A stretch of 64,000 nt of DNA from Phycisphaerales bacterium (GCA_965250055.1 OZ252285.1:2599767-2663766); one strand, 5' to 3'; shown: positions 18,550-39,592, counted from the stretch's first letter. Numbers and translations are program-made. The notes: a model not told the origin generated them from the sequence alone.

Positions 18550-18720
18550 TCAGGGACATCCCGCAGAGTACTGGCTCAGATATGCGGAAACATCGAGGAA
18601 GTTGAGCGTGCCGTCGTTTGTGAAATCGGCTACGGCGCTCATGCTGCTGTACGCAGAGATGAACATGCTCACATCAAGGAAGTTCAGCGATCCGCTCTGG
18701 TCAAGATCTGCATGGCTGCA
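18550..18720 (-). other. Dockerin-like double EF-hand module ending Cys-Pro-COOH (copy 1)
   Basis: 56 aa from the bracketing Cys to the terminal CP. Two D-x-x-x-x-G-x-L-N-F-L-D-V-S repeats. Confidence 0.8.
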
Positions 18721-19743
18721 GAACGCGGTGTTGAGGCGCGTCGCGGTGTCTTGCATGATCTCGGTGAGCTTGGGGTTGAGCAGGTCGTTGTTCCAGACTT
18801 CCATGTAGCGGACGCCAGAATCGATCGCGAGGTCGATCTCGCCTTGATATCCATCATCGCTGAAGCGTTCGGGGGTGTTGGTGTAGCTGTTGGCGACTTG
18901 GACCTCGGAATGGCTCTGTTTCGATGCGTCCTGGAGGATCTCGAACATGCCGGGATAGACATCAGTCGCGTTGTGGACCATCCACCACGCCGCGAGCACA
19001 CCGACTCGTCTGCCGTGCATTGCACGCGCATGGTTGTAGACCTCGATCGCAACCGCGTCGCTCCCGAGCACGGGGTGGACCTCGTGGGCGAGCGCGTGGT
19101 TCGGGAACGCTTGAACGAACGCGTCGATCGCGTTCTTCCACGAGTCGGCGTAGAGGGAATCGGTGTATCCGATGTTCATCCAGTTGATCGTGTCTGTCGG
19201 GGAGCGCGGGAGCTGCATCTCAAAGCCGTTAGAGCTGGAGTTGGTGATGTAGACGAGGGAGATGGTGTCCTCGTTTGCGTAGCGAGCGCCGAGCTGCTGG
19301 ACGAACTGAGACCATCGGCTCTGAAAGATGGTGTCCCAAGGAACGGGCATCTGTTCTGCTGAGTCATGGAACTGGTAGCTGAACATCTGGACTCCGAGCG
19401 ATTGGAGCCAGCTGGGTGCGACGAGTCCGTTGACCACAGCGAGTGAGACTTTGATGTCGTAGCTCTGCGCCGCTTGGATTTGTCCGTCGATGAGAGACCA
19501 GTCGTATACGCCTGGGCTGGTCTCGATATCTTCCCACGCGACGCGGACGAGCACGCCGTCTACGTGCTCAAGCTCTGCGATTGTGGGGACGACCGAGACC
19601 GATCCAGTGCTGGTGGTCGGAGGACAGCTGCAGTACAGCCCCATCGGTGTTTCATACCCGCCAGCGAGGGCTGGGAGCGTGGACAGAGCGATAACGATTG
19701 ATGATGAGAGACCCTTCATGGTTGTGCAACGACGATGGAGCAT
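18550..19743 (-). CDS. Secreted glycoside-hydrolase-like (TIM-barrel) protein with C-terminal Cys-bracketed double dockerin-like module
   Basis: Signal peptide. VLVRVAWEDIETSPGVYDWSLIDGQI and NGFEMQLP resemble GH42/GH5-type barrels, a weak by-eye call. The tail is CSHADLDQSGSLNFLDVSMFISAYSSMSAVADFTNDGTLNFLDVSAYLSQYSAGCP*. Confidence 0.8.
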   Translation of the reverse strand: MLHRRCTTMKGLSSSIVIALSTLPALAGGYETPMGLYCSCPPTTSTGSVSVVPTIAELEHVDGVLVRVAWEDIETSPGVYDWSLIDGQIQAAQSYDIKVSLAVVNGLVAPSWLQSLGVQMFSYQFHDSAEQMPVPWDTIFQSRWSQFVQQLGARYANEDTISLVYITNSSSNGFEMQLPRSPTDTINWMNIGYTDSLYADSWKNAIDAFVQAFPNHALAHEVHPVLGSDAVAIEVYNHARAMHGRRVGVLAAWWMVHNATDVYPGMFEILQDASKQSHSEVQVANSYTNTPERFSDDGYQGEIDLAIDSGVRYMEVWNNDLLNPKLTEIMQDTATRLNTAFCSHADLDQSGSLNFLDVSMFISAYSSMSAVADFTNDGTLNFLDVSAYLSQYSAGCP

Positions 19744-19756
19744 GGGTATTGCCGCT

Positions 19757-19843
19757 TTACGGGCACCCTGATGAATATTGACTCAGGTACTCGGAGATGT
19801 CGAGGAAGTTGAGTCGGCCGTCGTTGTTGATGTCCGCGATGCA
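19757..19843 (-). other. Half-size (single-repeat) dockerin-like module ending Cys-Pro-COOH (copy 2)
   Basis: 28 aa from Cys to CP with only one EF-hand-like loop. Confidence 0.8.
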
Positions 19844-21037
19844 GTCCGGCGCTTGTGAACCTCGCACGGCGAGGGTGACGGCGTCGCTGAGTTGTTGATC
19901 GCCTTTGGTCGTCATGACGCTGCACGCGTAGGAGTCCGTGTCGCTGAGCATCGCGTTGTCGATGATGAGTTTATTGGTTGTTGTGCCGCTGATGCGTCCG
20001 TCGTCTATGAGTGGGTTCCCATTGCGGAACCACTGGAAAGTGGAAAGGGGATCGGAGGGTGCGAGTTCGAGCACTCCTGCTGTTCCCGCGTCAACGAGCG
20101 TTCCGGTGGGTTGCTGGATGATGGGGTCTACATCGAAGTTGATCGAGATGCCCATCGTGACCGCGTTCTCAAGCACGAGTGTGATCTGGTTGGTGGTCGT
20201 GTTAAGGAATGTGAGGGTGGGGTCCATGAATAATCCAGTTGATGAAGAGGCGGCGACCTGATCACCAACAACCGCGACATCTTGGAACAGCGGCACCAAG
20301 CCGAGGAAGAAGTCTTCTGTACCGAGCAAGAGTTCTCCGCCTGCGAGAGGGGTGGTGTGCGAGACTCGGTAGACTGCGGAAGCGGATCCCGTCAATCCGC
20401 CGGCTTCATTGATCTCGGTCCAGTAGACATCACCCGAAACGGGATCGATCCCGACGCCATACTGACTACCACCTGACATCTCGTGTGGGATGCTGGTTGG
20501 CGCGGGTGACGATGCGCCGCTGAGGTTCCCCATCAGGAGATCACCTGATGAAGTGACGACGTAGAACCCACGATCAGTATCGATGTCCAAATCGAAGGGC
20601 TCCGGCACGTTGTCGGCTTCGAGGATCGGGGTCCCGGTGCCGTCGGAGTTGACGCTCAGGATCTCGTCGTTCTCCCACCAGTAGATGCGTCCTGTATCGG
20701 GATCAACATGGACCTTCTTCGCGTTCTCGTCGAGTCCGCTGACTAGGACTGTCATTGATCCTGGATCTAGTGAGGGGTTGATCGAGATCAAACGTGCGGA
20801 TCCGGTCTCCTTTGCGATAAGCACCACACGCTCGCGTGGTCGATCAAAGTCTGAGCCGAAGAATCCTTGGAAGTCTGGCGCGTCGATGGTGTAGAGGGTG
20901 ATGCTGCCGTCGATGCTCTGTGAGAAGAAGAAGTCTGGGAAGACATCTTGACCGAAGATATGCGTGATCTCATATGGCTGGGCGTTCGCGATCGAGGTGG
21001 TAAAGAGCACAAACAGGGCAAATACACGGCGAATCAT
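19757..21037 (-). CDS. Secreted YWTD-type beta-propeller + Ig (I-set-like) protein with a single dockerin-like repeat
   Basis: Start chosen at MIRRVFALFVLFTTSIANA (SD GGAAGAGA). YWTD-like blades (GRIYWWEN, GDVYWTEI). Ig-like block (FQWFRNG...SDTDSYACSV...). The tail is CIADINNDGRLNFLDISEYLSQYSSGCP*. A 13-bp gap separates it from the next gene. Confidence 0.8.
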   Translation of the reverse strand: MIRRVFALFVLFTTSIANAQPYEITHIFGQDVFPDFFFSQSIDGSITLYTIDAPDFQGFFGSDFDRPRERVVLIAKETGSARLISINPSLDPGSMTVLVSGLDENAKKVHVDPDTGRIYWWENDEILSVNSDGTGTPILEADNVPEPFDLDIDTDRGFYVVTSSGDLLMGNLSGASSPAPTSIPHEMSGGSQYGVGIDPVSGDVYWTEINEAGGLTGSASAVYRVSHTTPLAGGELLLGTEDFFLGLVPLFQDVAVVGDQVAASSSTGLFMDPTLTFLNTTTNQITLVLENAVTMGISINFDVDPIIQQPTGTLVDAGTAGVLELAPSDPLSTFQWFRNGNPLIDDGRISGTTTNKLIIDNAMLSDTDSYACSVMTTKGDQQLSDAVTLAVRGSQAPDCIADINNDGRLNFLDISEYLSQYSSGCP

Positions 21038-21154
21038 CTCGTCTCTTCCATTCTGATACGGACCAATCTCAGTATACAGAAAGCCCCACGAATCACGAGG
21101 GATAACCTGATAGATCACAGGCAATTCGACGCGGACAGATGAGTTGGGTATGGA

Positions 21155-24565: not shown

Positions 24566-25600
24566 TTATGGCGTCGGATTGCTCGGAGGTGGGGGCGTGC
24601 GATCGAATGAGGATCGGTCTGGCTGTGGCGCTTGCGTATCCTGCTTGATCTTCGCTTGCTGGCGCTCCGGAGTCCCTGAGACATACGGATCGCGCCGTCC
24701 TGGACGGAAGATCAATCGATCCATCGACAACGGTCCAGCGCCGAGCAGGAACACGCTCAGCGACATGATGATGATGGAGAACTGCCAGAGCAGTGTGGAA
24801 TACGCGGCGGGGTCCCAAGGGTCCACGGCGTGGGGGATGAATCCCAGGAACGCATCGGAAGACTGCAACGCCGCGGGACCGATGTTGGTGGTCCAGATCG
24901 CGACGAGCATCACGATGGTCAGCGACATCGCGCTCAGACGAGTCAGTAATCCTACAAGCAGGAACACTCCCGCGGCGATCTCGGTGATCGCGGTCGCCCA
25001 CGCGGCGTAGACGGGCATCTTCCCAGATCCCATCCACGAGGGCATCGTCGGGGTGATGGGCTGAGAATCCTCAGTCAGTCCAGGAGAGGTCGCGTTGTCG
25101 AGCAGCAGCGTGATCTTGTAGACGTTCTTGATGCGGACAGGATCGGGGTAGTCGGATCCCACAGCAGGCGCGGTGGACTGGACGACGTGGGTGAATGTGT
25201 ATTGCGGATTCAGGAGCGCGCGGTTCTCGGATTCACTGCCTTGGGTTTCGGGTTGGGCTGGTTGTTGTGCGGGTGGTTGGGTTTCGGGAGTCTCGGTCTC
25301 TGGAGTGGTGGTCGGCAGATCTTCTGATGAGTCCGCTGGGTCGATGTCGCTGTCGAGCAGCTCAGAATCGGGGAGTGGATTGACGGGCTCAGCAGGGAGT
25401 TCTGATTCTGGTTCAGCTGGGAGCGCTGGAGTGTCTGGGAGGAAGGTGACGCCGAGGTTGGCGAGGCGAGCGGCGTTGTCGCCTTGGGTGGTGGTGGTGC
25501 CGACGATCTTCCCGATCCCGGCCCAGAGGAAAATGATCGCGAGCGCCAAGCGGAGCAAAAAGGCGGGGAGTGTGAGGGCGATGTGGTCGCGGCAGCGCAT
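24566..25600 (-). CDS. DoxX-family membrane protein with internal Pro/Glu/Thr-rich insert
   Basis: LLRLALAIIFLWAGIGKI DoxX-type first helix, with further TMs at the C-terminal half. An ~80-aa acidic Pro-rich spacer (PAEPESELPAEPVNPLPDSE...TPETETPETQPPAQQPAQPE) splits them. Confidence 0.7.
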   Translation of the reverse strand: MRCRDHIALTLPAFLLRLALAIIFLWAGIGKIVGTTTTQGDNAARLANLGVTFLPDTPALPAEPESELPAEPVNPLPDSELLDSDIDPADSSEDLPTTTPETETPETQPPAQQPAQPETQGSESENRALLNPQYTFTHVVQSTAPAVGSDYPDPVRIKNVYKITLLLDNATSPGLTEDSQPITPTMPSWMGSGKMPVYAAWATAITEIAAGVFLLVGLLTRLSAMSLTIVMLVAIWTTNIGPAALQSSDAFLGFIPHAVDPWDPAAYSTLLWQFSIIIMSLSVFLLGAGPLSMDRLIFRPGRRDPYVSGTPERQQAKIKQDTQAPQPDRSSFDRTPPPPSNPTP

Positions 25601-25786: not shown

Positions 25787-25869
25787 GCGGGTGTGGCGGA
25801 ACTGGTAGACGCGCCAGATTTAGGTTCTGGTGAGCATAGCTCGTGCAGGTTCGATTCCTGTCACCCGCA
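25787..25869 (+). tRNA. tRNA-Leu (anticodon UAG), type II with long variable arm; no encoded CCA
   Basis: Manual fold: acceptor GCGGGTG/CACCCGC; anticodon stem CCAGA/TCTGG; loop TTTAGGT (U33, UAG, G37). Variable stem is GAGC-ATA-GCTC, T-arm is GCAGG-TTCGATT-CCTGT, discriminator is A. Confidence 0.93.
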
Positions 25870-25934: not shown

Positions 25935-26102
25935 TTACGGACAGCTTTGTCCGTAGCTCGCGAGGAACGCGGAGATGTCGAGGAAGTTGAAGTTCCCGTC
26001 GTTGTTGACGTCCGCGATGGGGTCCATGTCGCCGTAGAGACCAAGGAAGAGGGAGACGTCGAGGAAGTTGAGACCTCCGGAGAAGTCGAAGTCGGTGTCG
26101 CA
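25935..26102 (-). other. Dockerin-like double EF-hand module ending Cys-Pro-COOH (copy 3)
   Basis: 55 aa from Cys to the terminal CP. Confidence 0.85.
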
Positions 26103-29084
26103 GACCGCGCCGATTCGGATCTCGTCTTCGAAGTATCCGACCTTGTAGCTCAGGCGTGGGTCGCCGGTCGCTGGAGCGATGAAGGTGTCGAACGTTCCGG
26201 TGACTCCTGCATCAGCAGTGACGATGGTCACGACCCACGAGGTCTCGGGATCGAACCCCTCGATGAGCGAGAGGTCGAGCGTGCCGTCGGCGTGAAAGGT
26301 CGAGGAGGAGTCGATGAGGTCACTCGTTCCAAAGTCCGAGACTTCGACCTCGTAGACGCTGGAGTCTGAGAGGGTGATGGGTTGGCTCGCTTCGAGTTCT
26401 CCGACGGAGAGTCCCGGCGCGATGGTGCCGTCCATGTTGAGCGGCGCGTTGATCTGACCACGTCCAGAGAGTGTTTGGTCCGCTCCGATGGTGAGTCCGG
26501 CGCCAGTGATCTGTGATCTGTTTGTGGTCCCGGTAAGTCGGATCTCACCCATGCCGTCGATAGTTGCTGGGGCGGCTGAGGTGACTGCGGTTGCGAATCC
26601 ACTGTTCGTTGGGTTGATGTTGATCGTGTTGTGATTGGTGACGGTGCCCACGATAGCGAGGTTTACACCCGGGTTAATAGTGACTGGTGAAAGATTGGTC
26701 ATATCCTGGAACGTCGAGATTCCGGAGTTGAGTAATGTGGACCCACCGGCGAGCGCGTCCATCGTGCCGCCGTTGATCGTGGCGCTGGTGAGTGTGACCA
26801 AGCCGTCGTTGTTGAGGATCTGACCTCCTCCGGTTTGATCGATCTCGATGCTTGAGACCTGCAGTCCTTCGGCTGGGTTCACCTGGATCAGTGTGTTATT
26901 GATCTTGTTGTTTGATTGGAGCGTGAGTGTTCCGGTGGTCGATTCGATGAGTCCGTTGTTGATCAGCGAGGCGTTGATCTGACCGAATCCCTGAACGGTG
27001 TGCGATGCGCCGATTGTGACGGTTTCGCCCGCTGCGGTGTTGAGCTGTGAGCGATTTGTCGTCCCCATGAGCCGTGTTGTTCCGGTTCCTCCGAGTGTGG
27101 TTGAATCGTTGAACTGGAGAATTGTGATGAAGCCGGCGTTGGACGGGTTGATGGAGATGATGTCGTTACTCATCAAGCCGTTGGTGATCCCGATCGTGGT
27201 TCCGGGGTTGAGGTTCAGTGGCGCGTTGAGTGTGAGTTGATCAAAGTTGGTTGCGCCTGATGATTGCGTGACCACACCGCTCGCGGCATTGATTGTTCCG
27301 TTGTTTATGTTCACTGATGAAAGCGTCAGTGTGCCGTCGCCAACATTGATCTGCGCTGCAGGGTCTTGATCGAGCGTGATTGTTGAGATGGTGATGTTTG
27401 CTCCGGGTTGTATGGAGATTGTGCTGTTGTTCACCTTGTCGTTGCTCAGCAAGCTCAGTGTCTGACCGCTGGTGTCAGCGTCGATCGTTCCGTTGTTGAT
27501 CAGCGATGCATGGATCTGTCCGAATCCTCGGATGACATGACCAGACGCGAGTCCAAGGGTTTCTCCGGCTCCGGTTGTGATCTGTGATCTGTTTCCGGTT
27601 CCACGCAACAATGTTTGTCCTGATCCTGACAGGACTGTGGATGCTGGGAAACTGAGGGTGGTCACGAATCCCGCGTTGGTAGGGTTGATGGTGAGATCGT
27701 CGTTGTTGATAAGCGTGTTGGTTGCTACGAGCGCCACGCCGGGATTGATGTTGAGCGGCGAGTTGAGCACGACGCTGTCAAAGTTGTTTGTCCCTGCGGT
27801 GAGGTTTGTGGCGCCAGTTGTCGCATTGATCACCCCATCGTTGATTGTGGAAGAGCTGATGTTGAGGGTGCCGTTGTCGATATTGAACTGCCCGCCCCCG
27901 GTTTGATCAACAGTGATGCTCGAGATATTCATGATCGCGTTGTTGGTGATCTCGAAGATGTTGTTGTTGACTTTGTTGTTCGTGCTCAACAGCAAGATCT
28001 GTCCCGCTACGTCGGCACTCACCACGCCGTTGTTGATCAGTGGGGCTTGGATGGTGCCTATCCCGCGGATCGTGTGTGTAGATGCTTGTGTGAGTGTGTG
28101 AGAGGGATCAGAGGTCCGGAGATTTGATCTGGAACCAACTCCGTCGAGCGCGAGCGTCCCCGTGCCGTTGAGTGTTGATATGTTCTGGAACTCCGCGACG
28201 GTCACAAAGCCTGCATTGGTGGGGTTGATGCTCAGGTTCGCGTCGTTTGTCATCGTGTTGATGATCTGGAGCGTCACGCCGGGATTGACGATGCCGTTGC
28301 CCATTGCGTGGACATTGTTGAACGAGTTGGTGCCCCCTGTAAATGCCCAGTTTGATCCGGGCATGGACTGGATCGTCCCGTCCGCGATGCTGATCGTTGA
28401 CATGTTCAGTTGACCATCGTCAACGCTGATTTCCCCGCTCACGCCTTGTCCGATTGCGACGTTGTTCATGAACATAGTCGCGTTGTTCACGACTTCGATG
28501 CGATTGTTGTTTGTCCAGGTGCCGCTCAGGATATCGAGTGTGAGTCCGTTGAGATTAGCGCTGACAGTTCCGTCGTTGAGGAAGTCCCCGACGATGCGTC
28601 CGAAGCCGTTCACGGTGTGATCGGTTCCGTGTGATACGGTGGCTCCTGCTCCTGAGACCAATGAAGCACGAGTACCGAATCCATTGAGCGTGAGCGCCCC
28701 GGTTCCTGTGAGTGTCGCGGAGTTATTGAAAGTGACGCTGGTGGTGAACCCACCGCTGGAGTTGTTCACAAGGACAGTGCCGTTGTTGACCATGCCGCCT
28801 TGGAGTCCGATTGCTCTCCCTGCGTCCATGCTGAGTGTGCATCCAGTGTCTTGGATATCTACTGAACCAAGTCCCGGCACGGAGATGTTGAGGGTTGCGG
28901 TGTAGGTCCCTCCGATGTTGAACTCCGCGGTCTCGGTGCCCATGCTCGGGACGCTCATCGGAGACCAGTTGGTTGGAACGTTCCATAAACCACCAGCGGG
29001 ATTGACCCAGTCGATGTTCTGTCCGAGTGCGGTGCCTGCGAGTAAAAAGACGGCGAGTGTTGATTTGGTCATTGGGGTGTTCAT
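25935..29084 (-). CDS. Giant secreted Asn/Thr/Gly-rich beta-helix-type repeat protein (1049 aa) with C-terminal dockerin-like module
   Basis: SD GGAGAG and a signal peptide ending ALGQ. N-terminal W..P.GG.W....NW.P motif. Five ~180-aa units anchored on NPTNAGF (aa 112, 292, 472, 652, 830). A GTIAPGLSVGEL...TFHADGTLDL...GF block precedes the tail. The tail is CDTDFDFSGGLNFLDVSLFLGLYGDMDPIADVNNDGNFNFLDISAFLASYGQSCP*. Confidence 0.9.
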   Translation of the reverse strand: MNTPMTKSTLAVFLLAGTALGQNIDWVNPAGGLWNVPTNWSPMSVPSMGTETAEFNIGGTYTATLNISVPGLGSVDIQDTGCTLSMDAGRAIGLQGGMVNNGTVLVNNSSGGFTTSVTFNNSATLTGTGALTLNGFGTRASLVSGAGATVSHGTDHTVNGFGRIVGDFLNDGTVSANLNGLTLDILSGTWTNNNRIEVVNNATMFMNNVAIGQGVSGEISVDDGQLNMSTISIADGTIQSMPGSNWAFTGGTNSFNNVHAMGNGIVNPGVTLQIINTMTNDANLSINPTNAGFVTVAEFQNISTLNGTGTLALDGVGSRSNLRTSDPSHTLTQASTHTIRGIGTIQAPLINNGVVSADVAGQILLLSTNNKVNNNIFEITNNAIMNISSITVDQTGGGQFNIDNGTLNISSSTINDGVINATTGATNLTAGTNNFDSVVLNSPLNINPGVALVATNTLINNDDLTINPTNAGFVTTLSFPASTVLSGSGQTLLRGTGNRSQITTGAGETLGLASGHVIRGFGQIHASLINNGTIDADTSGQTLSLLSNDKVNNSTISIQPGANITISTITLDQDPAAQINVGDGTLTLSSVNINNGTINAASGVVTQSSGATNFDQLTLNAPLNLNPGTTIGITNGLMSNDIISINPSNAGFITILQFNDSTTLGGTGTTRLMGTTNRSQLNTAAGETVTIGASHTVQGFGQINASLINNGLIESTTGTLTLQSNNKINNTLIQVNPAEGLQVSSIEIDQTGGGQILNNDGLVTLTSATINGGTMDALAGGSTLLNSGISTFQDMTNLSPVTINPGVNLAIVGTVTNHNTININPTNSGFATAVTSAAPATIDGMGEIRLTGTTNRSQITGAGLTIGADQTLSGRGQINAPLNMDGTIAPGLSVGELEASQPITLSDSSVYEVEVSDFGTSDLIDSSSTFHADGTLDLSLIEGFDPETSWVVTIVTADAGVTGTFDTFIAPATGDPRLSYKVGYFEDEIRIGAVCDTDFDFSGGLNFLDVSLFLGLYGDMDPIADVNNDGNFNFLDISAFLASYGQSCP
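26415..28787 (-). repeat. In-frame array of ~540-nt (about 180-aa) repeat units, about 4.5 copies
   Basis: Recurring I-N-P-T-N-A/S-G-F ... L-x-G-T-G ... R-S-Q/N-L/I ... H-T-I/V-x-G-F/I-G-x-I ... L-I-N-N-G anchors at a constant spacing of 178-180 aa. Confidence 0.8.
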
Positions 29085-29251: not shown

Positions 29252-29419
29252 TTACGGGCAGCTCTGGCCGTAGCTTGCGAGGAACGCGGAGATGTCGAGG
29301 AAGTTGAAGTTCCCGTCGTTGTTGATATCCGCGATCGGATTCATCTCGCCGTAGAGAGCTAGGAAGAGGGAGACATCGAGGAAGTTGAGTCCTCCTGAGA
29401 AGTCGAAGTCTGTATCGCA
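29252..29419 (-). other. Dockerin-like double EF-hand module ending Cys-Pro-COOH (copy 4)
   Basis: CDTDFDFSGGLNFLDVSLFLALYGEMNPIADINNDGNFNFLDISAFLASYGQSCP*. Confidence 0.85.
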
Positions 29420-31882
29420 GACCGCGCCGACGCGGATCTCGTCCTCGAAGTATCCGATCTTGTAACTCAGTCTTGGATCCGCAGCAGCGGGTGCGATGAG
29501 TGTGTCGAATGTTCCTGTGACTCCGCCGTCAGCCGTGACGATGGTGACGACCCATGATTCTGTTGGAGTGAATCCATCGATGAGCGTGAGGTCGAGCGTG
29601 CCGTCGGCGTGGAAGGTCGATCCAGAGTCGATGACATCATGGCTCGACAGTCCTCCAACCTCGATCTCAAGAACGCTTGAATCTCCCAGCGTGATCGGGC
29701 TGGTTGCATTGAGGATCCCTGCGGAGAGTCCCGGCGCGATGGTGCCGTGATTGACCATCGGGGTCGCGATGCGTCCGATCCCAGTGATGGTGTGGTCCGC
29801 GCTGTTGGTGAAGACCTCCGTGCCTGTGACGCTGGTGATCTGGGCGCGTGTGGTCAATCCGCTGAGATTGAGCTCGCCTGGTCCTTCGATGGTTAGGTCG
29901 TTCTGGATCTCCAGCGATGTGACAGCGGCTCCGTTGGTTGGGTTCAGATCAAGCACCGAGTTGTTGGTGTGTGTGCCGCTGAGTTCGAGTGTCCGTCCCG
30001 GCTCGACAACAACCGATGCATTGTTGATAACGCTGGTCAATCGGCTTGTGCCTCCCTGGACATTGAATACGCCCGTGCCGCTGGATTCGATCGAACCTCC
30101 GGTGATGATGGTATTCTGGAGTTCAACCTCGCCGTCATCTGCGGTGATCTTTGCGCCTAGAGCTTGGGTTACACTCGAATCGGTACTGAGTTCGAGGGTC
30201 GCACCGTTGGTGGACTGGATTGTATTGTTGTTCTGAATTTCGTAGTCATCGACGAGGAGCTCTTGTCCCGAGAAATCAGCGATGATCTGTCCCTCGTTGA
30301 TCATGGGCGCGTTGATGCGTCCGAAGCCGTGGATGGTGTGATTGGCGCCGTTGGTAATCACGAAGGTAGTCGGGAGCACCGAGAGGATTTGAGCTCTGGT
30401 TGAAAAACCATTGAGTGTTACTGATCCAGTACCATTCAGTGATCCTGAATCCATGAAGCGCAGGTTCGTTTGGGCAGCACCGTTGGTTGGGTTGATGAGG
30501 ATGTTGCCGTTGTTGGTGATGGAGTTGCGGATCTGCAGCGCGTCGCCGACTGAGACATTGAACTGGGCTTCATTGGTGACCCCGCGGAGCTCAGTGACGA
30601 AGACAACCTCGTGGATACCTGAGCCGCTGGTGAGGGTGCCGCCTTCGATCTCTGGTCCGTTGTAGACGATGTTGCTGGTGTTGGCCGCGAGCACGCCCCC
30701 TCCGGTCTGGTCGAGGGTGAAGTTGTTGATTTCAAGTGTGCCGCCGTCTGCGGACATGATGCCGTTGTTTGTTTTGTTTTCACCGGAGTTGAGCAGCGTG
30801 TTTCCGGGGTTGTTGGCGGTGATCGTGCCGTTGTTGACCAGGGAACCAAAGATGCGTCCGAACCCCTCGAGGGTGTGGTTGGTGTCGTTGGTGAGGGTGC
30901 CCCCTCCGGCGGTGGTGATCTGGGCGCGTGTGGTGAAGCCGTTGAGTGTGACCTTGCCCGGCCCGGTCAGCAGGACGTTGTTGTCGGCGTCGAGAGTCGT
31001 AACCGCGGCTCCGTTTGCCGGATTGACCAAGATCGTACCGTTGTTGGTGATGGTGTCCGAGAGGTTAAGGGTCCGCGACACCGCGACCTGGACATCGCCG
31101 TTGATGGTGAGGTCGTCAAGTGTCGGAGAGCCGTCGGAGACGACCACGCCGCCGTTGATTCCTTCGATGCTGCCGCCGGAGATTGATGTTTGATGCATCG
31201 ACACAGTGCCGCCGTCGGCGCGGACGACGCCGGCTGGGCTTTGGGTGATGATGAGATCGACGAAGTTGAGATCGAGGATCCCGTTGTTGGTGGCGCCGAT
31301 GACGCTGTTGTTGGTGATGTTCCCGAATCGGAAGTCGAGGGTGTTGAACGGATTGTCCGCTTGGATGGTACCGTTGTTGATGAAGTCACCGAAGATCTGT
31401 CCGTAGCCGTGGATCGTGTGACCGGCGCCGTGCGTGACTGTCGATCCTGATTCAGCGATCAAGCGTGATCGAGTCGAGAGTCCGTTGAGGAGGATGTCTC
31501 CCGTGCCGCTGATGGTTGCGGAGTCTCTCCAGAAGAGCGAGGTTTGTGCGGCTCCTGAAGTGGTGTTGACAACGTAGGTCCCGCTGTTGTCGAAGTTGCC
31601 GAAGAGTTCGTGCTGACGGCTGAGATTCAACGCGATCGTTGCGCTGGGGTTGTTGTTGGTGATGTCATCGGTGTCGAAGTTGCCGCTGATTGTGATGGTG
31701 TATGTCCCGTTGTTGGGGATGACCGCGTCGCTGGTCATCGTGGTCGGTGCGCTCACGGGCGTCCAGTTGGTGGGTACAGACCAGAACCCATCGGTCGTCA
31801 GGTTCCAGGTTGATGTTTGTGCGAGTCCGGCGCTGGTGATCAGCGTGAGCGCGGATACGGCGGCGAGTGTTTTGGTGTGCAT
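29252..31882 (-). CDS. Paralogous giant secreted beta-helix-type repeat protein (876 aa) with C-terminal dockerin-like module
   Basis: SD GGGAGAGAG and a signal peptide ending GLAQ. Same N-terminal W....G.W..PTNW.P motif. Four ~180-aa units anchored on N-P-x-N-G-A-A (aa 110, 291, 468, 651). The last ~165 aa are nearly the same as in the 1049-aa paralog. Confidence 0.9.
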   Translation of the reverse strand: MHTKTLAAVSALTLITSAGLAQTSTWNLTTDGFWSVPTNWTPVSAPTTMTSDAVIPNNGTYTITISGNFDTDDITNNNPSATIALNLSRQHELFGNFDNSGTYVVNTTSGAAQTSLFWRDSATISGTGDILLNGLSTRSRLIAESGSTVTHGAGHTIHGYGQIFGDFINNGTIQADNPFNTLDFRFGNITNNSVIGATNNGILDLNFVDLIITQSPAGVVRADGGTVSMHQTSISGGSIEGINGGVVVSDGSPTLDDLTINGDVQVAVSRTLNLSDTITNNGTILVNPANGAAVTTLDADNNVLLTGPGKVTLNGFTTRAQITTAGGGTLTNDTNHTLEGFGRIFGSLVNNGTITANNPGNTLLNSGENKTNNGIMSADGGTLEINNFTLDQTGGGVLAANTSNIVYNGPEIEGGTLTSGSGIHEVVFVTELRGVTNEAQFNVSVGDALQIRNSITNNGNILINPTNGAAQTNLRFMDSGSLNGTGSVTLNGFSTRAQILSVLPTTFVITNGANHTIHGFGRINAPMINEGQIIADFSGQELLVDDYEIQNNNTIQSTNGATLELSTDSSVTQALGAKITADDGEVELQNTIITGGSIESSGTGVFNVQGGTSRLTSVINNASVVVEPGRTLELSGTHTNNSVLDLNPTNGAAVTSLEIQNDLTIEGPGELNLSGLTTRAQITSVTGTEVFTNSADHTITGIGRIATPMVNHGTIAPGLSAGILNATSPITLGDSSVLEIEVGGLSSHDVIDSGSTFHADGTLDLTLIDGFTPTESWVVTIVTADGGVTGTFDTLIAPAAADPRLSYKIGYFEDEIRVGAVCDTDFDFSGGLNFLDVSLFLALYGEMNPIADINNDGNFNFLDISAFLASYGQSCP
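29738..31585 (-). repeat. In-frame array of ~540-nt (about 180-aa) repeat units, about 3.5 copies
   Basis: Anchors NTTSGAA / NPANGAA / NPTNGAA / NPTNGAA spaced 177-183 aa apart, each followed by L-x-G-x-G ... TRAQI ... H-T-x-x-G-x-G-R-I. Confidence 0.8.
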
Positions 31883-32044: not shown

Positions 32045-32212
32045 TTACGGGCAGCCGTTCCCGAATGCGGAGAGGAACGCCGAGACGTCGAGGAAGTTGA
32101 AGCTCCCCTCCCCCGTGAAGTCCGCGGCGGGGTCTTGGTTCCCGAACGCCGCGAGGAACGCGGAGACATCGAGGAAGTTCAGGTTGCCGTCAGCAGTGAA
32201 GTCCGCTGGACA
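32045..32212 (-). other. Dockerin-like double EF-hand module ending Cys-Pro-COOH (copy 5)
   Basis: 55 aa from Cys to the terminal CP. Confidence 0.85.
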
Positions 32213-34327
32213 CGGATTGCTCACATCCTCGCAGGAGACCAGTTCGACCTGCACCGCATCGACCGCGGCTTCGACAACCGAACCCTCGCCGGTATCACCG
32301 GCACGGAAGCGGATGCGGACCTGGTCCGATGGGGACGTGAAGATCTGGGAGAGGTCGAAGGAGTACTCGTTCCATCCGCCTCCTGCTGCTGGATCACCCG
32401 GACCGATGGTGTCGAGGGATTGCCAGTTGCCTCCATTGTTGTTGGAGATGTCGATGAAGATGGTGTCGTCAACCTCTCCAACATTATTTGAGTACCACAG
32501 TGCGTAGGAGAGCATCGGGATGCCTTCGCCTGTCGCGTCCATTGCTGGTGAGGTGAGGGTGGTGGTGCCGCCGTCAACGTCTGAGTTTCCTGCGACGTTG
32601 TCTGTGAGGTAGCAACGACCCGATCCGTCGTAGTCGGTCACGGGATCGCCGCGTCCGCCGCCGCCGGCTGGGATGCCGCGTTCCCACGCGCCGTCTGACA
32701 CGGAACCAGAGACGGACCATCCCATGTTGGATTCGAAGTTGTCCGCGAAGAGTTCTTCGAAGTCTGACGCGACACTCGCGGTGAACACGTTTGATGGTGC
32801 GTCAGCTGGGAGTGTCTTGACTACGCCATCGCTGTCGGTGACTCTGAAGAAGTACTGCAATGTTTGGCCACACTCAATAGCCGGCGACATTGCGGTCCAT
32901 GATCCATCTGGGTTCGGAGACAGGAAGTCTGCGACAAATCCTTGTCCATCAACATCAAAGAACGCGTGGACTGTTTCGAATGACGTGCCGTCGCGTGTGA
33001 TGATGTTGACGCTGATCGGATCACCACCTGCAGGGCTGACCGTGCTCGGCATGTCATCGCGTTGTTGGAGCGCGAAGCCGTCGAGGTCTGCATCCAGACG
33101 GAGCAGGAAGAGTCCGCGCTCGATATCCGAGACCGCGATGGTTCCCGATGGGAAGAAGGGGTAGCTCGACCACGCGCCGTTAAAGCTCGCGGCGTCTGAA
33201 CCTGGGTAGCTATCGAAGTACGCGATCTCGACGGGGTTGGTCGGATCAAGTCCATCAAACACACGCAGACCAGAGCGGTAGTTCGCTTGGTAGATCACGT
33301 AATCGCGTGTGTACAGGTTGTGGTCGATCGCGGCTTTGCCCGTGGTGTATGTTCCAACGAATGTAGGATTCGCAGGATCCTCAACATTGATCACACGCGT
33401 CGTCGTGACGGAAACGGTTGATCCCTCGTCGAGCTCGTCGTTGAGGTAGAGGAACTTGCGATCGGTTGAGAGCCAAGCTTGGTGTGAGTATCCAGCGTTG
33501 GGGTAGAACAGCGTCGAGATGGTGACGGGGTTGTTTGGATCGGTGACGTCCGCGATGCGGAGTCCTGTTTCAGAGAATCCTCCTGAGAACCCTGAACACA
33601 GGAACGCGAGCTCGCGTCCGGCGTACTCGCCGTCTTGCCAGGTGACGACCTGCGCATCGTGGACATACATCTCGGTCCATCCGCCGTCAAAGGATGGGAG
33701 CTCTGGGTTGGAGAGGTCGATGTGGACGAGCCCGCCGTTGCCGACGTTGGCGCCGACGATCCAGAGGGATCCGGTTTCTTCGTTCGCGACGATGTTGTGT
33801 GTCGTGGAGTATCCACCCGCGGTCCAGTTGCGGACGAGGGTGACATTGCCCGAGTCGATATTGGACATATCCATGACCTGGATGCCCGAGCCGCCTTCGG
33901 AGACGCCGTACGCGTACTCGCCCACGACCTTGACGTCGTGCCAGTCCGATCCTGGTCCGGTGACGGTATCGATGATGACGGGGCTCGTTGGGTTGGTGAC
34001 TTCTACGAATGCGAACCCACCGTAGACACCCATGATGACGTACTCGCGTCCCGATGGTGAGACGTATCCCCAGCAGTCGTTGCCGAAGGTGGAGTTGACG
34101 CCGACGAAGTTGTTGAGCGGGATCTGCGCCAGGAGGGTCATGTTCTGTGAGTCAAAGAGTCCACGCTGGACGTTGTCGGAATCCGCGGTCCAGATCGGTC
34201 CCATGACTGCGGACTGCTTGTCGAGCAGTTTGCGGTAGTCGTCATCGTGCGCGATCGCGGTTGATGAGACGCCGCAGGCGAGCGCGAGCGTGAGGGACAA
34301 TGATCGCCGGGAGGGCAGGTGACGCAT
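32045..34327 (-). CDS. Secreted choice-of-anchor-B / LVIVD-repeat propeller protein + jelly-roll (MAM/LamG-like) domain + dockerin-like module
   Basis: Start at MRHLPSRRSLSLTLALACG (signal peptide). NDCWGYVSPSGREYVIMG...VEVTNPTSP...WHDVKVVGEYAYGVSEGGSGIQVMDMSN matches the choice-of-anchor-B/LVIVD pattern. The tail is CPADFTADGNLNFLDVSAFLAAFGNQDPAADFTGEGSFNFLDVSAFLSAFGNGCP*. Confidence 0.85.
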   Translation of the reverse strand: MRHLPSRRSLSLTLALACGVSSTAIAHDDDYRKLLDKQSAVMGPIWTADSDNVQRGLFDSQNMTLLAQIPLNNFVGVNSTFGNDCWGYVSPSGREYVIMGVYGGFAFVEVTNPTSPVIIDTVTGPGSDWHDVKVVGEYAYGVSEGGSGIQVMDMSNIDSGNVTLVRNWTAGGYSTTHNIVANEETGSLWIVGANVGNGGLVHIDLSNPELPSFDGGWTEMYVHDAQVVTWQDGEYAGRELAFLCSGFSGGFSETGLRIADVTDPNNPVTISTLFYPNAGYSHQAWLSTDRKFLYLNDELDEGSTVSVTTTRVINVEDPANPTFVGTYTTGKAAIDHNLYTRDYVIYQANYRSGLRVFDGLDPTNPVEIAYFDSYPGSDAASFNGAWSSYPFFPSGTIAVSDIERGLFLLRLDADLDGFALQQRDDMPSTVSPAGGDPISVNIITRDGTSFETVHAFFDVDGQGFVADFLSPNPDGSWTAMSPAIECGQTLQYFFRVTDSDGVVKTLPADAPSNVFTASVASDFEELFADNFESNMGWSVSGSVSDGAWERGIPAGGGGRGDPVTDYDGSGRCYLTDNVAGNSDVDGGTTTLTSPAMDATGEGIPMLSYALWYSNNVGEVDDTIFIDISNNNGGNWQSLDTIGPGDPAAGGGWNEYSFDLSQIFTSPSDQVRIRFRAGDTGEGSVVEAAVDAVQVELVSCEDVSNPCPADFTADGNLNFLDVSAFLAAFGNQDPAADFTGEGSFNFLDVSAFLSAFGNGCP

Positions 34328-34513
34328 CGGAATTCCTTTCTGAAGTGCACAGCCAAGACCTGACCGGCGCACAAAGATACTGCAAAGTCCTCGAATGAGG
34401 CGGTATCCTATTCGAACAATCGACTTTCCCGGTTGCTTTTTTTGCTCAATTCGGGGATTCATTGCGATCTTTGTCTGTTTTTATCGTACCGAAACGGGAA
34501 CGGAGTAGCGCTG

Positions 34514-35428
34514 ATGATGCGATCTCGAAACATCTTGGGTCTTTGCTCAGCGCTGCTGCTCTGCGCCTCTGCGCACGGCGCGTCCGCACAGCCGCTAGAC
34601 CAAGAGTCCGAGTTGGATTCGGATTCCGGTACTGCAGAAACGACGCAATCAACACACCGCGGACTCCTGCTTGTTGATGACCAGATCAAACCCCAGATCG
34701 AGATCCGTTGGCAGACAACTTCTGGTGATCGTACGCTCTCGGGAACGCTCGGTTACACAGCACCCACGGGCGGGATCGTGCTCGAGGGAGCGGAGGATGA
34801 CGAGAATGTCCTCGCGTATCTCTCGCTCGGAGGCACGCGCGTCGAGACAGGCGCGGGACATCCCAAGGGGTTGGTGATCCGCGTTGGATTGACGAAGCGC
34901 GAGAACGCGCTGCCGTTCTTCGAGGACATCAAGCCGGGCGGAGAGATCGAGATCCATGTCGAGGGGGTCGTGGTTTCTGAGCCCGTCCAATATCACGTCG
35001 GCACAGGGATGATGCACCTCAAGTATGCGCTCGGAGATCTGATCGCATGCTCGCTTCCAGGATCAGCAAGGAATCAGTACCTGCTCTCAGACCCCAAAGA
35101 CACGCTCGGCGGCCGCGTCGTCGCGGGACTCAACGCGACTCCCGGCGCGCTCTCAGGTGAGGATGAATCGCTGGGGTCATTCGTGTTTCACTTCGATGAA
35201 GCAAACCCAACCACGCTCGGATTCACGGTCCGCATCCCGTATGGTCTGCTCCGTCACCTGCAGGACCCTTGGCAATCGACGCTTCCCAACACGTTCTTTG
35301 AACCGATCCACCTGCACGCGGAAGCGGAGGTGATCCCGGTTTGGGCCGAGCCGTTTGATCGGGAGTGGGAGCTTGAAAGCAACGAGCTGCGCGAACCCGA
35401 ATCTGAAGATGTCGAGAGCGACTCATGA
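34514..35428 (+). CDS. Hypothetical secreted beta-rich protein (no dockerin-like tail)
   Basis: Start at MMRSRNILGLCSALLLCASAHGASAQ (signal peptide). Acidic N- and C-terminal segments. No family recognised. It is the only plus-strand gene inside the dockerin-tail cluster apart from the deaminase. Confidence 0.65.
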   Translation: MMRSRNILGLCSALLLCASAHGASAQPLDQESELDSDSGTAETTQSTHRGLLLVDDQIKPQIEIRWQTTSGDRTLSGTLGYTAPTGGIVLEGAEDDENVLAYLSLGGTRVETGAGHPKGLVIRVGLTKRENALPFFEDIKPGGEIEIHVEGVVVSEPVQYHVGTGMMHLKYALGDLIACSLPGSARNQYLLSDPKDTLGGRVVAGLNATPGALSGEDESLGSFVFHFDEANPTTLGFTVRIPYGLLRHLQDPWQSTLPNTFFEPIHLHAEAEVIPVWAEPFDREWELESNELREPESEDVESDS

Positions 35429-36710: not shown

Positions 36711-36878
36711 TTATGGGCAGCCTTCGCCGAATGCAGCGAGGAATGCGGACACATCGAGGAAGTTGAAGTCGCCTTCGCCGGTGAAGTCAGCCGATGGGTG
36801 GCTCTTACCGAATGCGTTGAGGAACGCGGAGACGTCGAGGAAGTTGAGATCGCCTTCGCCGGTGAAGTCCGCAGGGCA
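36711..36878 (-). other. Dockerin-like double EF-hand module ending Cys-Pro-COOH (copy 6)
   Basis: 55 aa from Cys to the terminal CP. Confidence 0.85.
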
Positions 36879-38024
36879 TCCTGCAGCAGCGGTTGGGACG
36901 ATGCCACCGATGACGAGGGTCTGGTCACCCTTGAACGAGCTGATTGTGGTGTCACCCATGGTTGGTGGGGAATCAGTCTCGAACCAGAAGTTGTACATGG
37001 TGCCCCAGCGTACAGCGTTTGCCCACTGTGTGTCATCGAAGGTCTGGGTGCTCCAGGAGACGCTTGAGCCGCCTTCAGTCGCGGTCCAGTCGTCTGGGAG
37101 GATGTTGCCGTCAACGACGTCGTAGTAATCAACGTCGTTGAAGCCGTGGTTGGAGGTCGCGGTGTTGACCGGGACTGAGAAACCAGAAGCTGCGATGTCG
37201 GAGTTCTGGTTGTACAGGCCGTAGTCGTAGCGCCATGTGCCGTTGCCAAGATCAGTTGCTTTGGAAGCAACGATCATGCGGCCTTCGCCTGGCCACTCAG
37301 CTTCGTTGATCACGACGTCGGCATCGTGTGATTGCCAAGCGTAGATCGCTGGAGTTTCGCGGAAGGTCTGACCAGTGGTGCTTGCGTTGAAGTTCGACTG
37401 GTTGATGGTCATGCGCTTGTAGGACGCGTTGTTGAAGTTGGTTCCGGCTGCGTAGTCATCCTTGTTGGTGTACACACCTTCGCAGTAGAAGGTCGCGGTG
37501 GAGTCGGTGATGTCCGACTGCTGAACCTTGATGCGCTTGAAGATGTTGTTCCCGCTCTGGTTGATACCGGTGTATGGGTACACGTACTGAGCGGTGAATG
37601 GGTTGACTTCCGAGCGAGGACCGAGGTCGCCCTGGGTACCGTTGAGTCCTGCACCGTATGGATCGGAGCAGCCTGGGCCGAGAGCTTGGAAGTTGCCGCC
37701 GCCCTGACATGGCTGACATGCCGAACCCTGGAGGGAAGCGAATGAGTGCTTCAGGTGGGACAGGCCGAGTTGAGTCAAGCGTTCGGTTTCGTTGTCGTAT
37801 TTCCAGATGGTGACACCGATCACTGGGTGATTCGGGGAGTTGTCGATCCAGTCAGCGTTGGAAGTACCGATGTTACATGCGGTGGTACCAACTGAGTAAG
37901 CACGGATTCCGTTGGAAACGCCGTAGTTGTTCACGCCGTCGAGGGTGCCACAGATGACGTCCGGTGTAGCGACAGCGGTACCGGTGCAGGCAGCCAACAC
38001 GGCCGCGAGAGCGATGCGATTCAT
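36711..38024 (-). CDS. Secreted protein of unrecognised family (Cys-containing, Asn/Thr/Gly-rich) with dockerin-like module
   Basis: SD GGAGGA and signal peptide MNRIALAAVLAACTGTAVA. Payload contains ACQPCQGGG and GPGCSDPYGAG. No motif I can assign. The tail is CPADFTGEGDLNFLDVSAFLNAFGKSHPSADFTGEGDFNFLDVSAFLAAFGEGCP*. Confidence 0.85.
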   Translation of the reverse strand: MNRIALAAVLAACTGTAVATPDVICGTLDGVNNYGVSNGIRAYSVGTTACNIGTSNADWIDNSPNHPVIGVTIWKYDNETERLTQLGLSHLKHSFASLQGSACQPCQGGGNFQALGPGCSDPYGAGLNGTQGDLGPRSEVNPFTAQYVYPYTGINQSGNNIFKRIKVQQSDITDSTATFYCEGVYTNKDDYAAGTNFNNASYKRMTINQSNFNASTTGQTFRETPAIYAWQSHDADVVINEAEWPGEGRMIVASKATDLGNGTWRYDYGLYNQNSDIAASGFSVPVNTATSNHGFNDVDYYDVVDGNILPDDWTATEGGSSVSWSTQTFDDTQWANAVRWGTMYNFWFETDSPPTMGDTTISSFKGDQTLVIGGIVPTAAAGCPADFTGEGDLNFLDVSAFLNAFGKSHPSADFTGEGDFNFLDVSAFLAAFGEGCP

Positions 38025-38152: not shown

Positions 38153-38320
38153 TTATGGACATCCTTGTGCATAAGCCGAAAGGTACGCGCTGATGTCGAG
38201 GAAGTTGAACGAGCCGTTATCGTCCCAGTCCGCGGCGGGGTCCTCGTTACCAAACGAGGCAAGGAACGTGCTGATATCAAGGAAGTTCAGCGAGCCGTCC
38301 TCGAGCAGATCCGCTTCGCA
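38153..38320 (-). other. Dockerin-like double EF-hand module ending Cys-Pro-COOH (copy 7)
   Basis: 55 aa from Cys to the terminal CP. Confidence 0.85.
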
Positions 38321-39592
38321 CTCTTCCACAGTCAGATCACAGTTCGCGTCGTTCTCAAGGTAGGAAAGGATCCGCGTCTGGACGCGTTCGTGGAAGCGGA
38401 GGTCAATGTTGGACAGTCCGCCGGGGCAGAGGTGGCAGTAGGACATGATGGTCGAGTTGAGGCGCTGCGAGCAGTCGCCGTTCCCGCAGCCGTCGATGAC
38501 CGGGTTGTAGTCATCGTGGGTGTGTCCTGTCCCGAAGTTGTGTCCCATTTCGTGAGCCGCGACGATGACGTCCCAGTTGTTGTGGGAGTTGTCCTGAAGT
38601 GGATTGGGGAAGAACCCGTCGAGGTTGGCGCTGACGCCGATCCCCCAAAAGTCGTTGCACGCGGTCGCGAGCCATGCGACTCCGCCGCCGAGACTGCGAG
38701 CGCTGAGTCCCTGGACGACGGCGCGATCGATGTTCGCTTCATCTCCGGAGTTGAACTCGTCGCGGACGTCTTCGAGGAAGTCACCGATGTCGCTGCCGCC
38801 GTAGGGATCGTTGTTGGACGCGTAGGTGCGGAGGAACGGGACAGAGAGGGTCATGTTCACGTCACGGTTATAAATAGTCGAGATCGCGGCTAGCAGGGAG
38901 GACGCGTAGGACGCTGAAGCGGTGGTGTTGCCTCCAAAGAGCGAGTTGGTGAACTCGTAGTCTGTTTCCACAGCAACCTTCGCATCACGCTGGGGGACTG
39001 CTCCAAGCGGGATGTAGACGTCGCTGGTGCCCGTGAAATCTTGTGCTGGTTGGCGTCCCGATGGGAGGAAAGCCGGGTTGTTCATATCTACAGCACAGCT
39101 TTGACCAAACGCTTCGAGACCGAGTTGGTCCGATGGGGTGATCGCGAGATCCGCGAGGGTTTTCGCTTGCCCGTCGTACTTGCCAGTCGAGATGACGAAG
39201 CTGTTGTGCGCGATTTCAAGGTATCCCGAGGTGCCGAACTGGGTGATCGAGATGTACGCGATCTGGGAATCGTCCTCAGCGAGGTGTCCACGCAGGTGAA
39301 CGTCGGAGGAAAGGTCGATCGGATGCTCGATGCCTTTGGCATCAACAGAGACGATGCGAGCGCCTGGAGTGAACGGCGAGAAGCGTTCGAGCTCGAGCTC
39401 AACGCTCTGTCCGTCTTGGAGGGTGACCGCGAGCTCGACGATATCGCCGATGCGGACCTGCTGGAACGACTGGACGCTGGTCAGCGCGGCTTGGCTGGTC
39501 TCAGCGGTAAACGCATGGGCGTGGGGGGCAGCGAGCGCTGAAAGGTTCAGTGCAGACGCAGCAGCAATGGCAAGAAGGGACGTCGAACGCAT
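38153..39592 (-). CDS. Secreted metzincin (reprolysin/M12B-like) zinc metalloprotease with dockerin-like module
   Basis: SD GGAGAA and a signal peptide. HEMGHNFGTGHTHD equals the HExxHxxGxxH(D) zinc site. The tail is CEADLLEDGSLNFLDISTFLASFGNEDPAADWDDNGSFNFLDISAYLSAYAQGCP*. Confidence 0.88.
   Translation of the reverse strand: MRSTSLLAIAAASALNLSALAAPHAHAFTAETSQAALTSVQSFQQVRIGDIVELAVTLQDGQSVELELERFSPFTPGARIVSVDAKGIEHPIDLSSDVHLRGHLAEDDSQIAYISITQFGTSGYLEIAHNSFVISTGKYDGQAKTLADLAITPSDQLGLEAFGQSCAVDMNNPAFLPSGRQPAQDFTGTSDVYIPLGAVPQRDAKVAVETDYEFTNSLFGGNTTASASYASSLLAAISTIYNRDVNMTLSVPFLRTYASNNDPYGGSDIGDFLEDVRDEFNSGDEANIDRAVVQGLSARSLGGGVAWLATACNDFWGIGVSANLDGFFPNPLQDNSHNNWDVIVAAHEMGHNFGTGHTHDDYNPVIDGCGNGDCSQRLNSTIMSYCHLCPGGLSNIDLRFHERVQTRILSYLENDANCDLTVEECEADLLEDGSLNFLDISTFLASFGNEDPAADWDDNGSFNFLDISAYLSAYAQGCP

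Follow-up and report, generated by a model that had tools for sequence, protein, structure and literature searches.

A conserved cysteine pair brackets GC-type dockerin modules of a Phycisphaerales bacterium and may form a covalent clasp

Type I dockerins (PF00404) of clostridial cellulosomes consist of two tandem calcium-loop-plus-helix repeats, usually reside at the C-terminus of secreted enzymes and pair with cohesin. In all intact solved dockerins, the residues at positions -3 to -1, counted back from the glycine just ahead of the first loop Asp, touch a residue near the C-terminal end, a contact that Slutzki et al. (2013) named the 'intramolecular clasp' (PMC3821032). The clasp contacts are aromatic, proline, hydrophobic or ionic, their mutation destabilises the calcium-bound fold, and neither cysteine nor disulfide is mentioned anywhere in that paper (PMC3821032). 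For freshwater Phycisphaerae with small genomes (Nemodlikiaceae), Andrei et al. (2019) proposed a 'planctosome', which the passages on that system describe as dockerin-tagged M12B reprolysin-type and other peptidases that would assemble at the cell surface via recognisable cohesin domains carried by an anchoring and an adaptor protein (PMC6461901). Finally, the T9SS C-terminal domain, LPXTG and PEP-CTERM systems share with the proteins described below the trait of placing one extreme C-terminal tag on many unrelated exported proteins; the likeness is a functional analogy only, and the tag described here, which differs in having no transmembrane segment, basic tail, T9SS-type beta-sandwich or dedicated processing enzyme identified, is not a member of these classes.

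We analysed a window of 64,000 nucleotides, the whole stretch of DNA considered here, from a Phycisphaerales bacterium, an uncultured planctomycete of marine origin (GCA_965250055.1, OZ252285.1:2599767-2663766). A six-frame scan of this window revealed exactly seven long ORFs that carry a dockerin-like tail with a Cys at position -2 from the C-terminus, all of them on the minus strand (beginning at 18550, 19757, 25935, 29252, 32045, 36711 and 38153) and all with signal-peptide-like N-termini. The module on which this report centres (25935-26102, minus) comprises the last 55 codons and the stop of a 1049-aa ORF and is a two-repeat dockerin-like tail that reads CDTDFDFSGGLNFLDVSLFLGLYGDMDPIADVNNDGNFNFLDISAFLASYGQSCP in full, opening with CDTDFDFSGGLNFLD and closing with NNDGNFNFLDISAFLASYGQSCP directly before the stop; its N-terminal Cys is encoded at 26100-26102, its C-terminal Cys at 25941-25943, the final Pro at 25938-25940 and the TAA stop codon at 25935-25937. 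An earlier, sequence-only reading had described an invariant cysteine bracket around the seven modules, and the scan bears out its particulars: one Cys precedes the first loop in every module, at a measured distance of three to four residues from the Asp (C-x-x-D in six modules, C-x-x-x-D in one), in the contexts AFCSHAD, PDCIAD, AVCDTD (twice), NPCPAD, AGCPAD and EECEAD, and all seven modules finish in x-C-P-stop, with the endings AGCP, SGCP, QSCP (twice), NGCP, EGCP and QGCP.

The bodies that carry these modules are diverse. The first carrier (18550-19743, minus, 397 aa) has a glycoside-hydrolase-like body (GH42/GH35; PF02449, E=3.5e-6) and a 56-aa module (18550-18720, minus, FCSHAD...AGCP) whose N-terminal Cys lies four residues ahead of the first loop Asp. 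The second (19757-21124, minus, up to 455 aa with a start that is probably internal) contains an Ig-like domain and ends in CIADINNDGRLNFLDISEYLSQYSSGCP (19757-19843, minus), which is a true single-repeat module with both Cys present, as had been claimed. The third (25935-29084, minus, 1049 aa) consists of a signal peptide, a long repetitive body with no Pfam match and the module of this report, and has three Cys in total; its paralogue, the fourth carrier (29252-31882, minus, 876 aa; module 29252-29419), has only two Cys and both belong to the bracket. The bodies of these two paralogues match neither Pfam nor NCBIfam, are almost free of Cys beyond the bracket, and contain several long internal repeats, in which motifs like INPTN[AS]GF.T and R[AS]Q[IL] recur. 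On the strand opposite to the third carrier, 65 bases past its stop codon, lies a gene for tRNA-Leu (anticodon TAG; 25787-25869, plus). The fifth carrier (32045-34462, minus, 805 aa, the start probably being an internal Met ahead of the signal peptide) is a choice-of-anchor B protein (TIGR04312, E=1.1e-99) with the module NPCPAD...NGCP at 32045-32212 (minus), the sixth (36711-38024, minus, 437 aa) has a body without family or Pfam match and the module AGCPAD...EGCP at 36711-36878 (minus), and the seventh (38153-39592, minus, 479 aa) is a reprolysin-like M12B metallopeptidase (PF13688, E=5.7e-22) with the module EECEAD...QGCP at 38153-38320 (minus). In the fifth and seventh carriers a third Cys is found 3-8 residues upstream of the N-terminal bracket Cys (32045-32230 and 38153-38340, minus; VSCEDVSNPCPAD and NCDLTVEECEAD), and three Cys occur within the last 60 residues in 21 of 102 tails genome-wide; the partner of this additional Cys, if any, would be in the preceding domain.

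The tails match the NCBIfam model NF041540 ('dockerin_GC: GC-type dockerin domain-anchored protein'), which describes a C-terminal module of about 55-67 aa, as here, and is known as an annotation model only. Four of the seven window carriers pass its curated cut-off of 29 bits (the carriers beginning at 18550, 32045, 36711 and 38153, with 36.1, 41.8, 41.6 and 35.3 bits, respectively), and the tails at 25935 and 29252 fail it at 20.6 and 20.8 bits. For the tail at 19757, with its one repeat, hmmscan gave no match to NF041540; this tail scored 18 bits over profile positions 32-67 in a six-frame scan of the genome, a match that covers the second half of the profile only. NCBI lists close relatives under the product name 'GC-type dockerin domain-anchored protein [Phycisphaerales bacterium]', and a search of the full-text literature for the phrase 'GC-type dockerin' retrieved no paper. 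The window tails are thus further members of a dockerin family that is already catalogued but unstudied.

Several comparisons address the likeness to known dockerins. The full-length window proteins gave no Pfam dockerin match at E<=0.01, and isolated tails scored at best 21.4 bits against PF00404, below the gathering threshold of 22.9 bits, with the others at 14-16 bits or without a match; a sister-family tail passes the same model at 28.8 bits. A profile built from 74 paralogous tails of the genome gave weak matches to dockerins in the PDB (2y3n_B, E=0.002; 1ohz_B and 2ccl_B, E about 0.03). An AF2 model of a 62-aa tail, computed from the 74-tail alignment, has a pLDDT of 84.6 and places helices at residues 20-31 and 47-58, one directly after each loop, the two ends being the least confident parts (block means 59 and 60). 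A Foldseek search of this very small domain against the PDB returned no match at E<=0.001, the best-shaped dockerins being 2ozn_B (TM 0.55) and 5k39_B (TM 0.49) at E about 3. In the 74 paralogues both loops have an invariant Asp at positions 1 and 12, position 3 is T, N or D, position 5 is D or E and position 9 is N, so that, as judged from sequence, the tails have the two predicted 12-residue calcium loops of a type I dockerin (acidic or amide ligands at 1, 3, 5, 9 and 12), each followed by a helix. We conclude that the seven tails are GC-type dockerin modules. Sec-exported proteins carry them at their very C-terminus, and each module is made of two 'F-hand' repeats (calcium loop plus helix), or of a single repeat in one case. 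They differ from type I dockerins in a shorter linker between the repeats, in the helix motif N-F-L-D-V-S-x-F-L and in payloads that are mostly not cellulases.

The module is abundant in the host and its relatives. The host genome, a single contig of 2.93 Mb with roughly 2200 genes, contains 126 matches to NF041540 (about 100 above cut-off), and an iterated HMM search identified 123 module-bearing ORFs, 102 of which have a signal peptide by a heuristic rule and 121 of which carry the module within 30 residues of the C-terminus. The only internal copy in the genome resides in an RHS/YD-repeat protein of 2225 aa (genome 708825-715502, plus) that ends in a Hint-like segment, and this copy is devoid of both Cys. 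All 25 genomes of the host's genus encode the module, in 38 to more than 111 copies each; a second genus of the same family has 200-223 first-look candidates per genome, and a sister family has 16-71 copies per genome at E<=0.001 (11-58 at E<=1e-4). The remaining families of the order have essentially no copies, and in a sample of the phylum (201 genomes, 168 genera) nine genomes gave a match. Related loci come from uncultured Phycisphaerales MAGs, and database relatives include Tara Oceans samples and a bacterial contig in a Symbiodinium assembly. Among the payloads in this genome and its close relatives are peptidases (matrixin, reprolysin, subtilase and trypsin-type), nucleases, amylase and other glycosidases, PQQ sugar dehydrogenase, multihaem cytochromes and choice-of-anchor B proteins.

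The bracket itself is strongly conserved. Seventy-four paralogues in the genome share the exact 55-aa geometry, C-x-x-D...(49 residues)...C-x-stop. They are about 50% identical to the first sequence, and no column of their alignment is invariant except those of the two Cys and of the four Asp in the loops; Gly is found at -3 in 68/74 and Pro at -1 in 69/74. The bracket therefore reflects conservation and not chance. Genome-wide, a Cys at -2 is present in 107 of the 123 module-bearing ORFs, and after hand correction of tails missed by the regular expression about 112 have both Cys, three have the C-terminal Cys only and six or seven have neither. The observation made on the seven window modules is thus valid across the genome. 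In the best 120 database relatives, a Cys at -2 occurs in 120/120 and the full 55-aa bracket in 119/120. Two of the tails that have no C-terminal Cys (genome 2724711-2727158 and 642191-643318, both minus) have a TGA stop exactly at the position of the Cys codon (...AAFAAG-TGA and ...EYSSN-TGA), which looks like a one-step nonsense change from TGY to TGA that removed Cys-Pro; selenocysteine at these TGA codons was considered and set aside because the downstream frame does not run on as Pro-stop. Conceivably, the bracket might have no function of its own, its Cys being kept simply because the roughly 120 copies arose from one tail by recent duplication. The massive lineage-specific expansion and the existence of near-identical tails (those at 25935 and 29252 are 92% identical) speak for this explanation, but paralogues are only about 50% identical on average with nothing invariant beyond the two Cys and the loop Asp, the bracket spans genera, families and unrelated metagenomic lineages, and its Cys are lost as a pair, and we therefore consider recent duplication very improbable as the cause.

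This pairwise loss is seen in sister families, in which bracketed and unbracketed tails occur within the same genomes. Out of 73 module tails from 70 loci, 41 have both Cys, 26 have neither, three have only an N-side Cys (4-5 residues upstream) and three have only the C-terminal Cys, a co-occurrence with a Fisher p of 2.6e-13 that is not a true probability since the sequences are related. Moreover, several sister-family tails have a second, inner Cys pair between the repeats (WGxC-xx-CxxD), giving four-Cys variants, and one tail (L129) has the inner pair while the outer pair is absent. Together with the two-fold pseudo-symmetry of the dockerin, the inner pair and L129 fit a pattern of C1-C4 and C2-C3 bonds, in which an outer bond would connect the residue before loop 1 to that after helix 2 and an inner bond would connect the residue after helix 1 to that before loop 2.

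The location of the two Cys points in the same direction. On the clasp numbering of solved dockerins (PMC3821032), the N-terminal Cys is at position -2 and the C-terminal Cys follows the last helix, so that a bond between them would be a covalent clasp, whereas the termini of type I dockerins are held at the same positions by a non-covalent one. The remark in the sequence-only reading that classical dockerins have no such bracket agrees with the non-covalent clasps of the solved structures (PMC3821032). We favour, with a probability of roughly 0.55, the interpretation that the two Cys form an intradomain disulfide clasp in this catalogued but unstudied dockerin variant. On this reading, one intradomain disulfide would join the N-terminal Cys, located three residues ahead of loop 1, to the C-terminal Cys that directly follows the last helix, and would so tie the two ends of the module together, as the covalent counterpart of the non-covalent clasp of classical dockerins. 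An intramolecular disulfide was one of two alternatives put forward from the sequence, and it is the better supported one by virtue of the paired gain and loss, the clasp positions and the tandem brackets described next, support that is comparative in nature.

A profile search of 1.84 billion representatives yielded 22,231 proteins with E<=0.001, of which 3,104 reach E<=1e-10, and the top matches include proteins in which the bracket is not terminal. In P0129 and P0262, both from metagenomic contigs, four modules follow one another inside the protein, each of them bracketed (C-x-x-x-D ... helix 2-x-x-C), and all eight Cys of the protein belong to brackets; four others (P0268, P0144, P0203 and P0254) resemble them. 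Tandem arrays of three to five internal modules, every module having its own two-Cys bracket, are seen in P0129, P0131, P0262, P0268 and P0144, and the amino-acid composition of these five proteins is strongly unlike that of Phycisphaerales proteins, suggesting that they stem from other lineages. The module arrays of P0132 and P0189 are entirely free of Cys, and P0130 has a three-repeat module with Cys at its outer ends only. The bracket is thus a recurrent per-module feature that is independent of an adjacent free carboxyl end.

These internal modules bear on the second alternative put forward from the sequence, in which the penultimate Cys is a handle for covalent attachment or modification. 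More broadly, the two Cys might remain free thiols and offer a handle, for recognition or attachment, to an enzyme of processing or sorting or to a lipid or glycan modification, or they might form a metal site shared with a partner. The strict G-C-P-stop ending within the genus (with the above 107/123 for Cys at -2 and 69/74 for Pro at -1) and the fact that the tag replaces classical C-terminal sorting signals on the choice-of-anchor B protein are in keeping with a handle. However, the C-terminal Cys of sister-family tails is found 0-5 residues from the terminus, always three residues past a conserved helix aromatic, and in other organisms the bracket lies far from any C-terminus, the strongest argument against a handle at -2. 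Moreover, the N-terminal Cys is lost along with the C-terminal one, which a C-terminal handle leaves unexplained, and the motif is followed by neither a hydrophobic helix nor a basic tail, the window proteins stopping one residue past the Cys, unlike sortase and exosortase signals. The handle proposal is weakened accordingly, and we deem free thiols distinctly improbable.

The intradomain clasp is also challenged by modules with one or three repeats. The genome encodes ten single-repeat tails and both Cys are present in 10/10, and a three-repeat module likewise retains both. Spanning one loop-helix with a bond looks sterically difficult, and single- and three-repeat modules would then need to pair in trans. 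EF-hand-type repeats normally pair, which makes trans pairing natural for such modules, and planctomycete envelopes are described as cystine- and proline-rich. The disulfides might thus be intermolecular, linking a module to an envelope partner or to other tags (as closed dimers or head-to-tail chains) and anchoring cargo covalently in a protein-rich envelope. In line with this possibility, some single-repeat carriers are encoded as adjacent gene pairs (genome 1418712-1420325 and 1437233-1439026, with bodies that are 46% identical in one pair), and non-covalent docking to cohesin would have no visible partner, given that no cohesin was found in 41 genomes. Against it stand the internal tandem modules with exactly two Cys each, the usual sign of one bond per domain, the placement of the Cys at positions that are in mutual contact in solved dockerins, and the L129 tail with only the inner pair, which fits intradomain symmetry; the absent oxidase (see below) counts against intermolecular bonds equally. 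On balance, we regard intermolecular disulfides as rather unlikely and retain the intradomain clasp as the preferred reading.

How such a bond would form is less obvious. The disulfide had been taken to be consistent with export to an oxidising compartment, a notion that our searches do not back. No match to DsbA (PF01323), Thioredoxin_4 (PF13462), DsbB (PF02600) or VKOR (PF07884) was found in the host genome. Of 41 genomes examined in the order, those of dockerin-poor families have VKOR-DsbA-type genes in 7/12 cases and those of the two dockerin-rich families in 0/29, a split (Fisher p=3.5e-5) that reflects one or two evolutionary events. Where it occurs, VKOR is often fused to a DsbA-like domain in one ORF of 420-497 aa (order genomes G026-G040). 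What the host genome does encode is a set of at least five WCxxC proteins with a thioredoxin fold, either exported or anchored in the membrane; they are of the Thioredoxin_7/2 and TlpA/Redoxin types, which are usually reductases. Between the carrier genes lies a DoxX-family membrane protein of 344 aa (24566-25600, minus) with a long Pro/Glu/Thr-rich low-complexity insert; it was considered as an alternative thiol oxidase and discarded, having a single Cys (residue 3) and no CxxC.

The Cys content of the exported proteome was assessed with crude gene calls and the heuristic signal-peptide rule. By this measure, untagged exported proteins have 0.54 Cys per 100 aa versus 1.30 for cytoplasmic proteins, and 131/352 have no Cys at all; the Cys count is even in 62% of tag-bearing proteins versus 40% of other exported proteins, a difference that speaks for the clasp, but the Cys in the payloads of tagged proteins are not biased towards even counts (39 even, 38 odd). 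Cys-poor untagged exported proteins without an even bias mark an envelope in which disulfide formation is not routine, and this proteome, like the missing DsbA, DsbB and VKOR, counts against the clasp and is a point in favour of the free-thiol alternative discussed above. Under the intradomain clasp, the absence of these three enzymes from the lineage leads us to infer that the bond would form after export, either spontaneously once calcium-induced folding brings the thiols close together or by way of an unrecognised oxidase.

What the module docks to presumably also differs from the cellulosomal precedent. Whereas type I dockerins pair with cohesin, the Pfam cohesin model PF00963 found no match in the host genome at E<=1, nor in the 41 genomes of the order, host included, at E<=0.01. 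The seventh carrier is a tagged reprolysin as in the planctosome, yet the passages on that system call for recognisable cohesins, which are not detectable here, and do not feature a cysteine bracket (PMC6461901). A secreted protein encoded at 34514-35428 (plus), which had been nominated earlier as a candidate partner, was rejected in a cohesin-like role, having no PDB match (best E=0.13). This tail-less protein of 304 aa is a conserved Phycisphaerales hypothetical with 142 database relatives and many invariant His, Asp and Glu residues, and its AF2 model is beta-rich (pLDDT 81). That the fifth carrier, a choice-of-anchor B protein, ends in the tag is in keeping with a role in anchoring or sorting, choice-of-anchor proteins being a family defined by alternative C-terminal anchors. 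The module is a tag shared by about 120 proteins of this genome, including peptidases, glycosidases and choice-of-anchor proteins, and in close database relatives also by nucleases and cytochromes, and it presumably docks them to a non-cohesin receptor at the cell envelope.

A bolder extension of these ideas, which we rate as quite unlikely, is that the Cys pair might act as a latch that needs no oxidase and shuts only once the tag has left the cell: a reduced and unfolded tag would cross the VKOR-DsbA-less envelope, fold and lock in calcium-rich, oxic seawater and dock to a non-cohesin receptor, with one- and three-repeat tags locking in trans as covalent dimers. If true, a marine planctomycete lineage would display 4-5% of its proteome at the surface by a new system that does without cohesin, and would have lost the periplasmic oxidase as an adaptation to it. 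The intradomain clasp on its own, if true, would be the first disulfide form of a feature that is otherwise non-covalent in cellulosomal dockerins, and would make the tag a very small, calcium-dependent docking module that locks itself and might be useful to protein engineers. That neither a cohesin nor a disulfide oxidase is found in exactly those lineages that have expanded the tag sharpens the questions of what ligands non-cellulosomal dockerins bind and how planctomycetes display their exoenzymes. With the tag on about 120 of roughly 2200 genes, and up to about 200 candidates in relatives, this module may well organise most of the extracellular enzyme arsenal in a marine, alga-associated group of Phycisphaerales.
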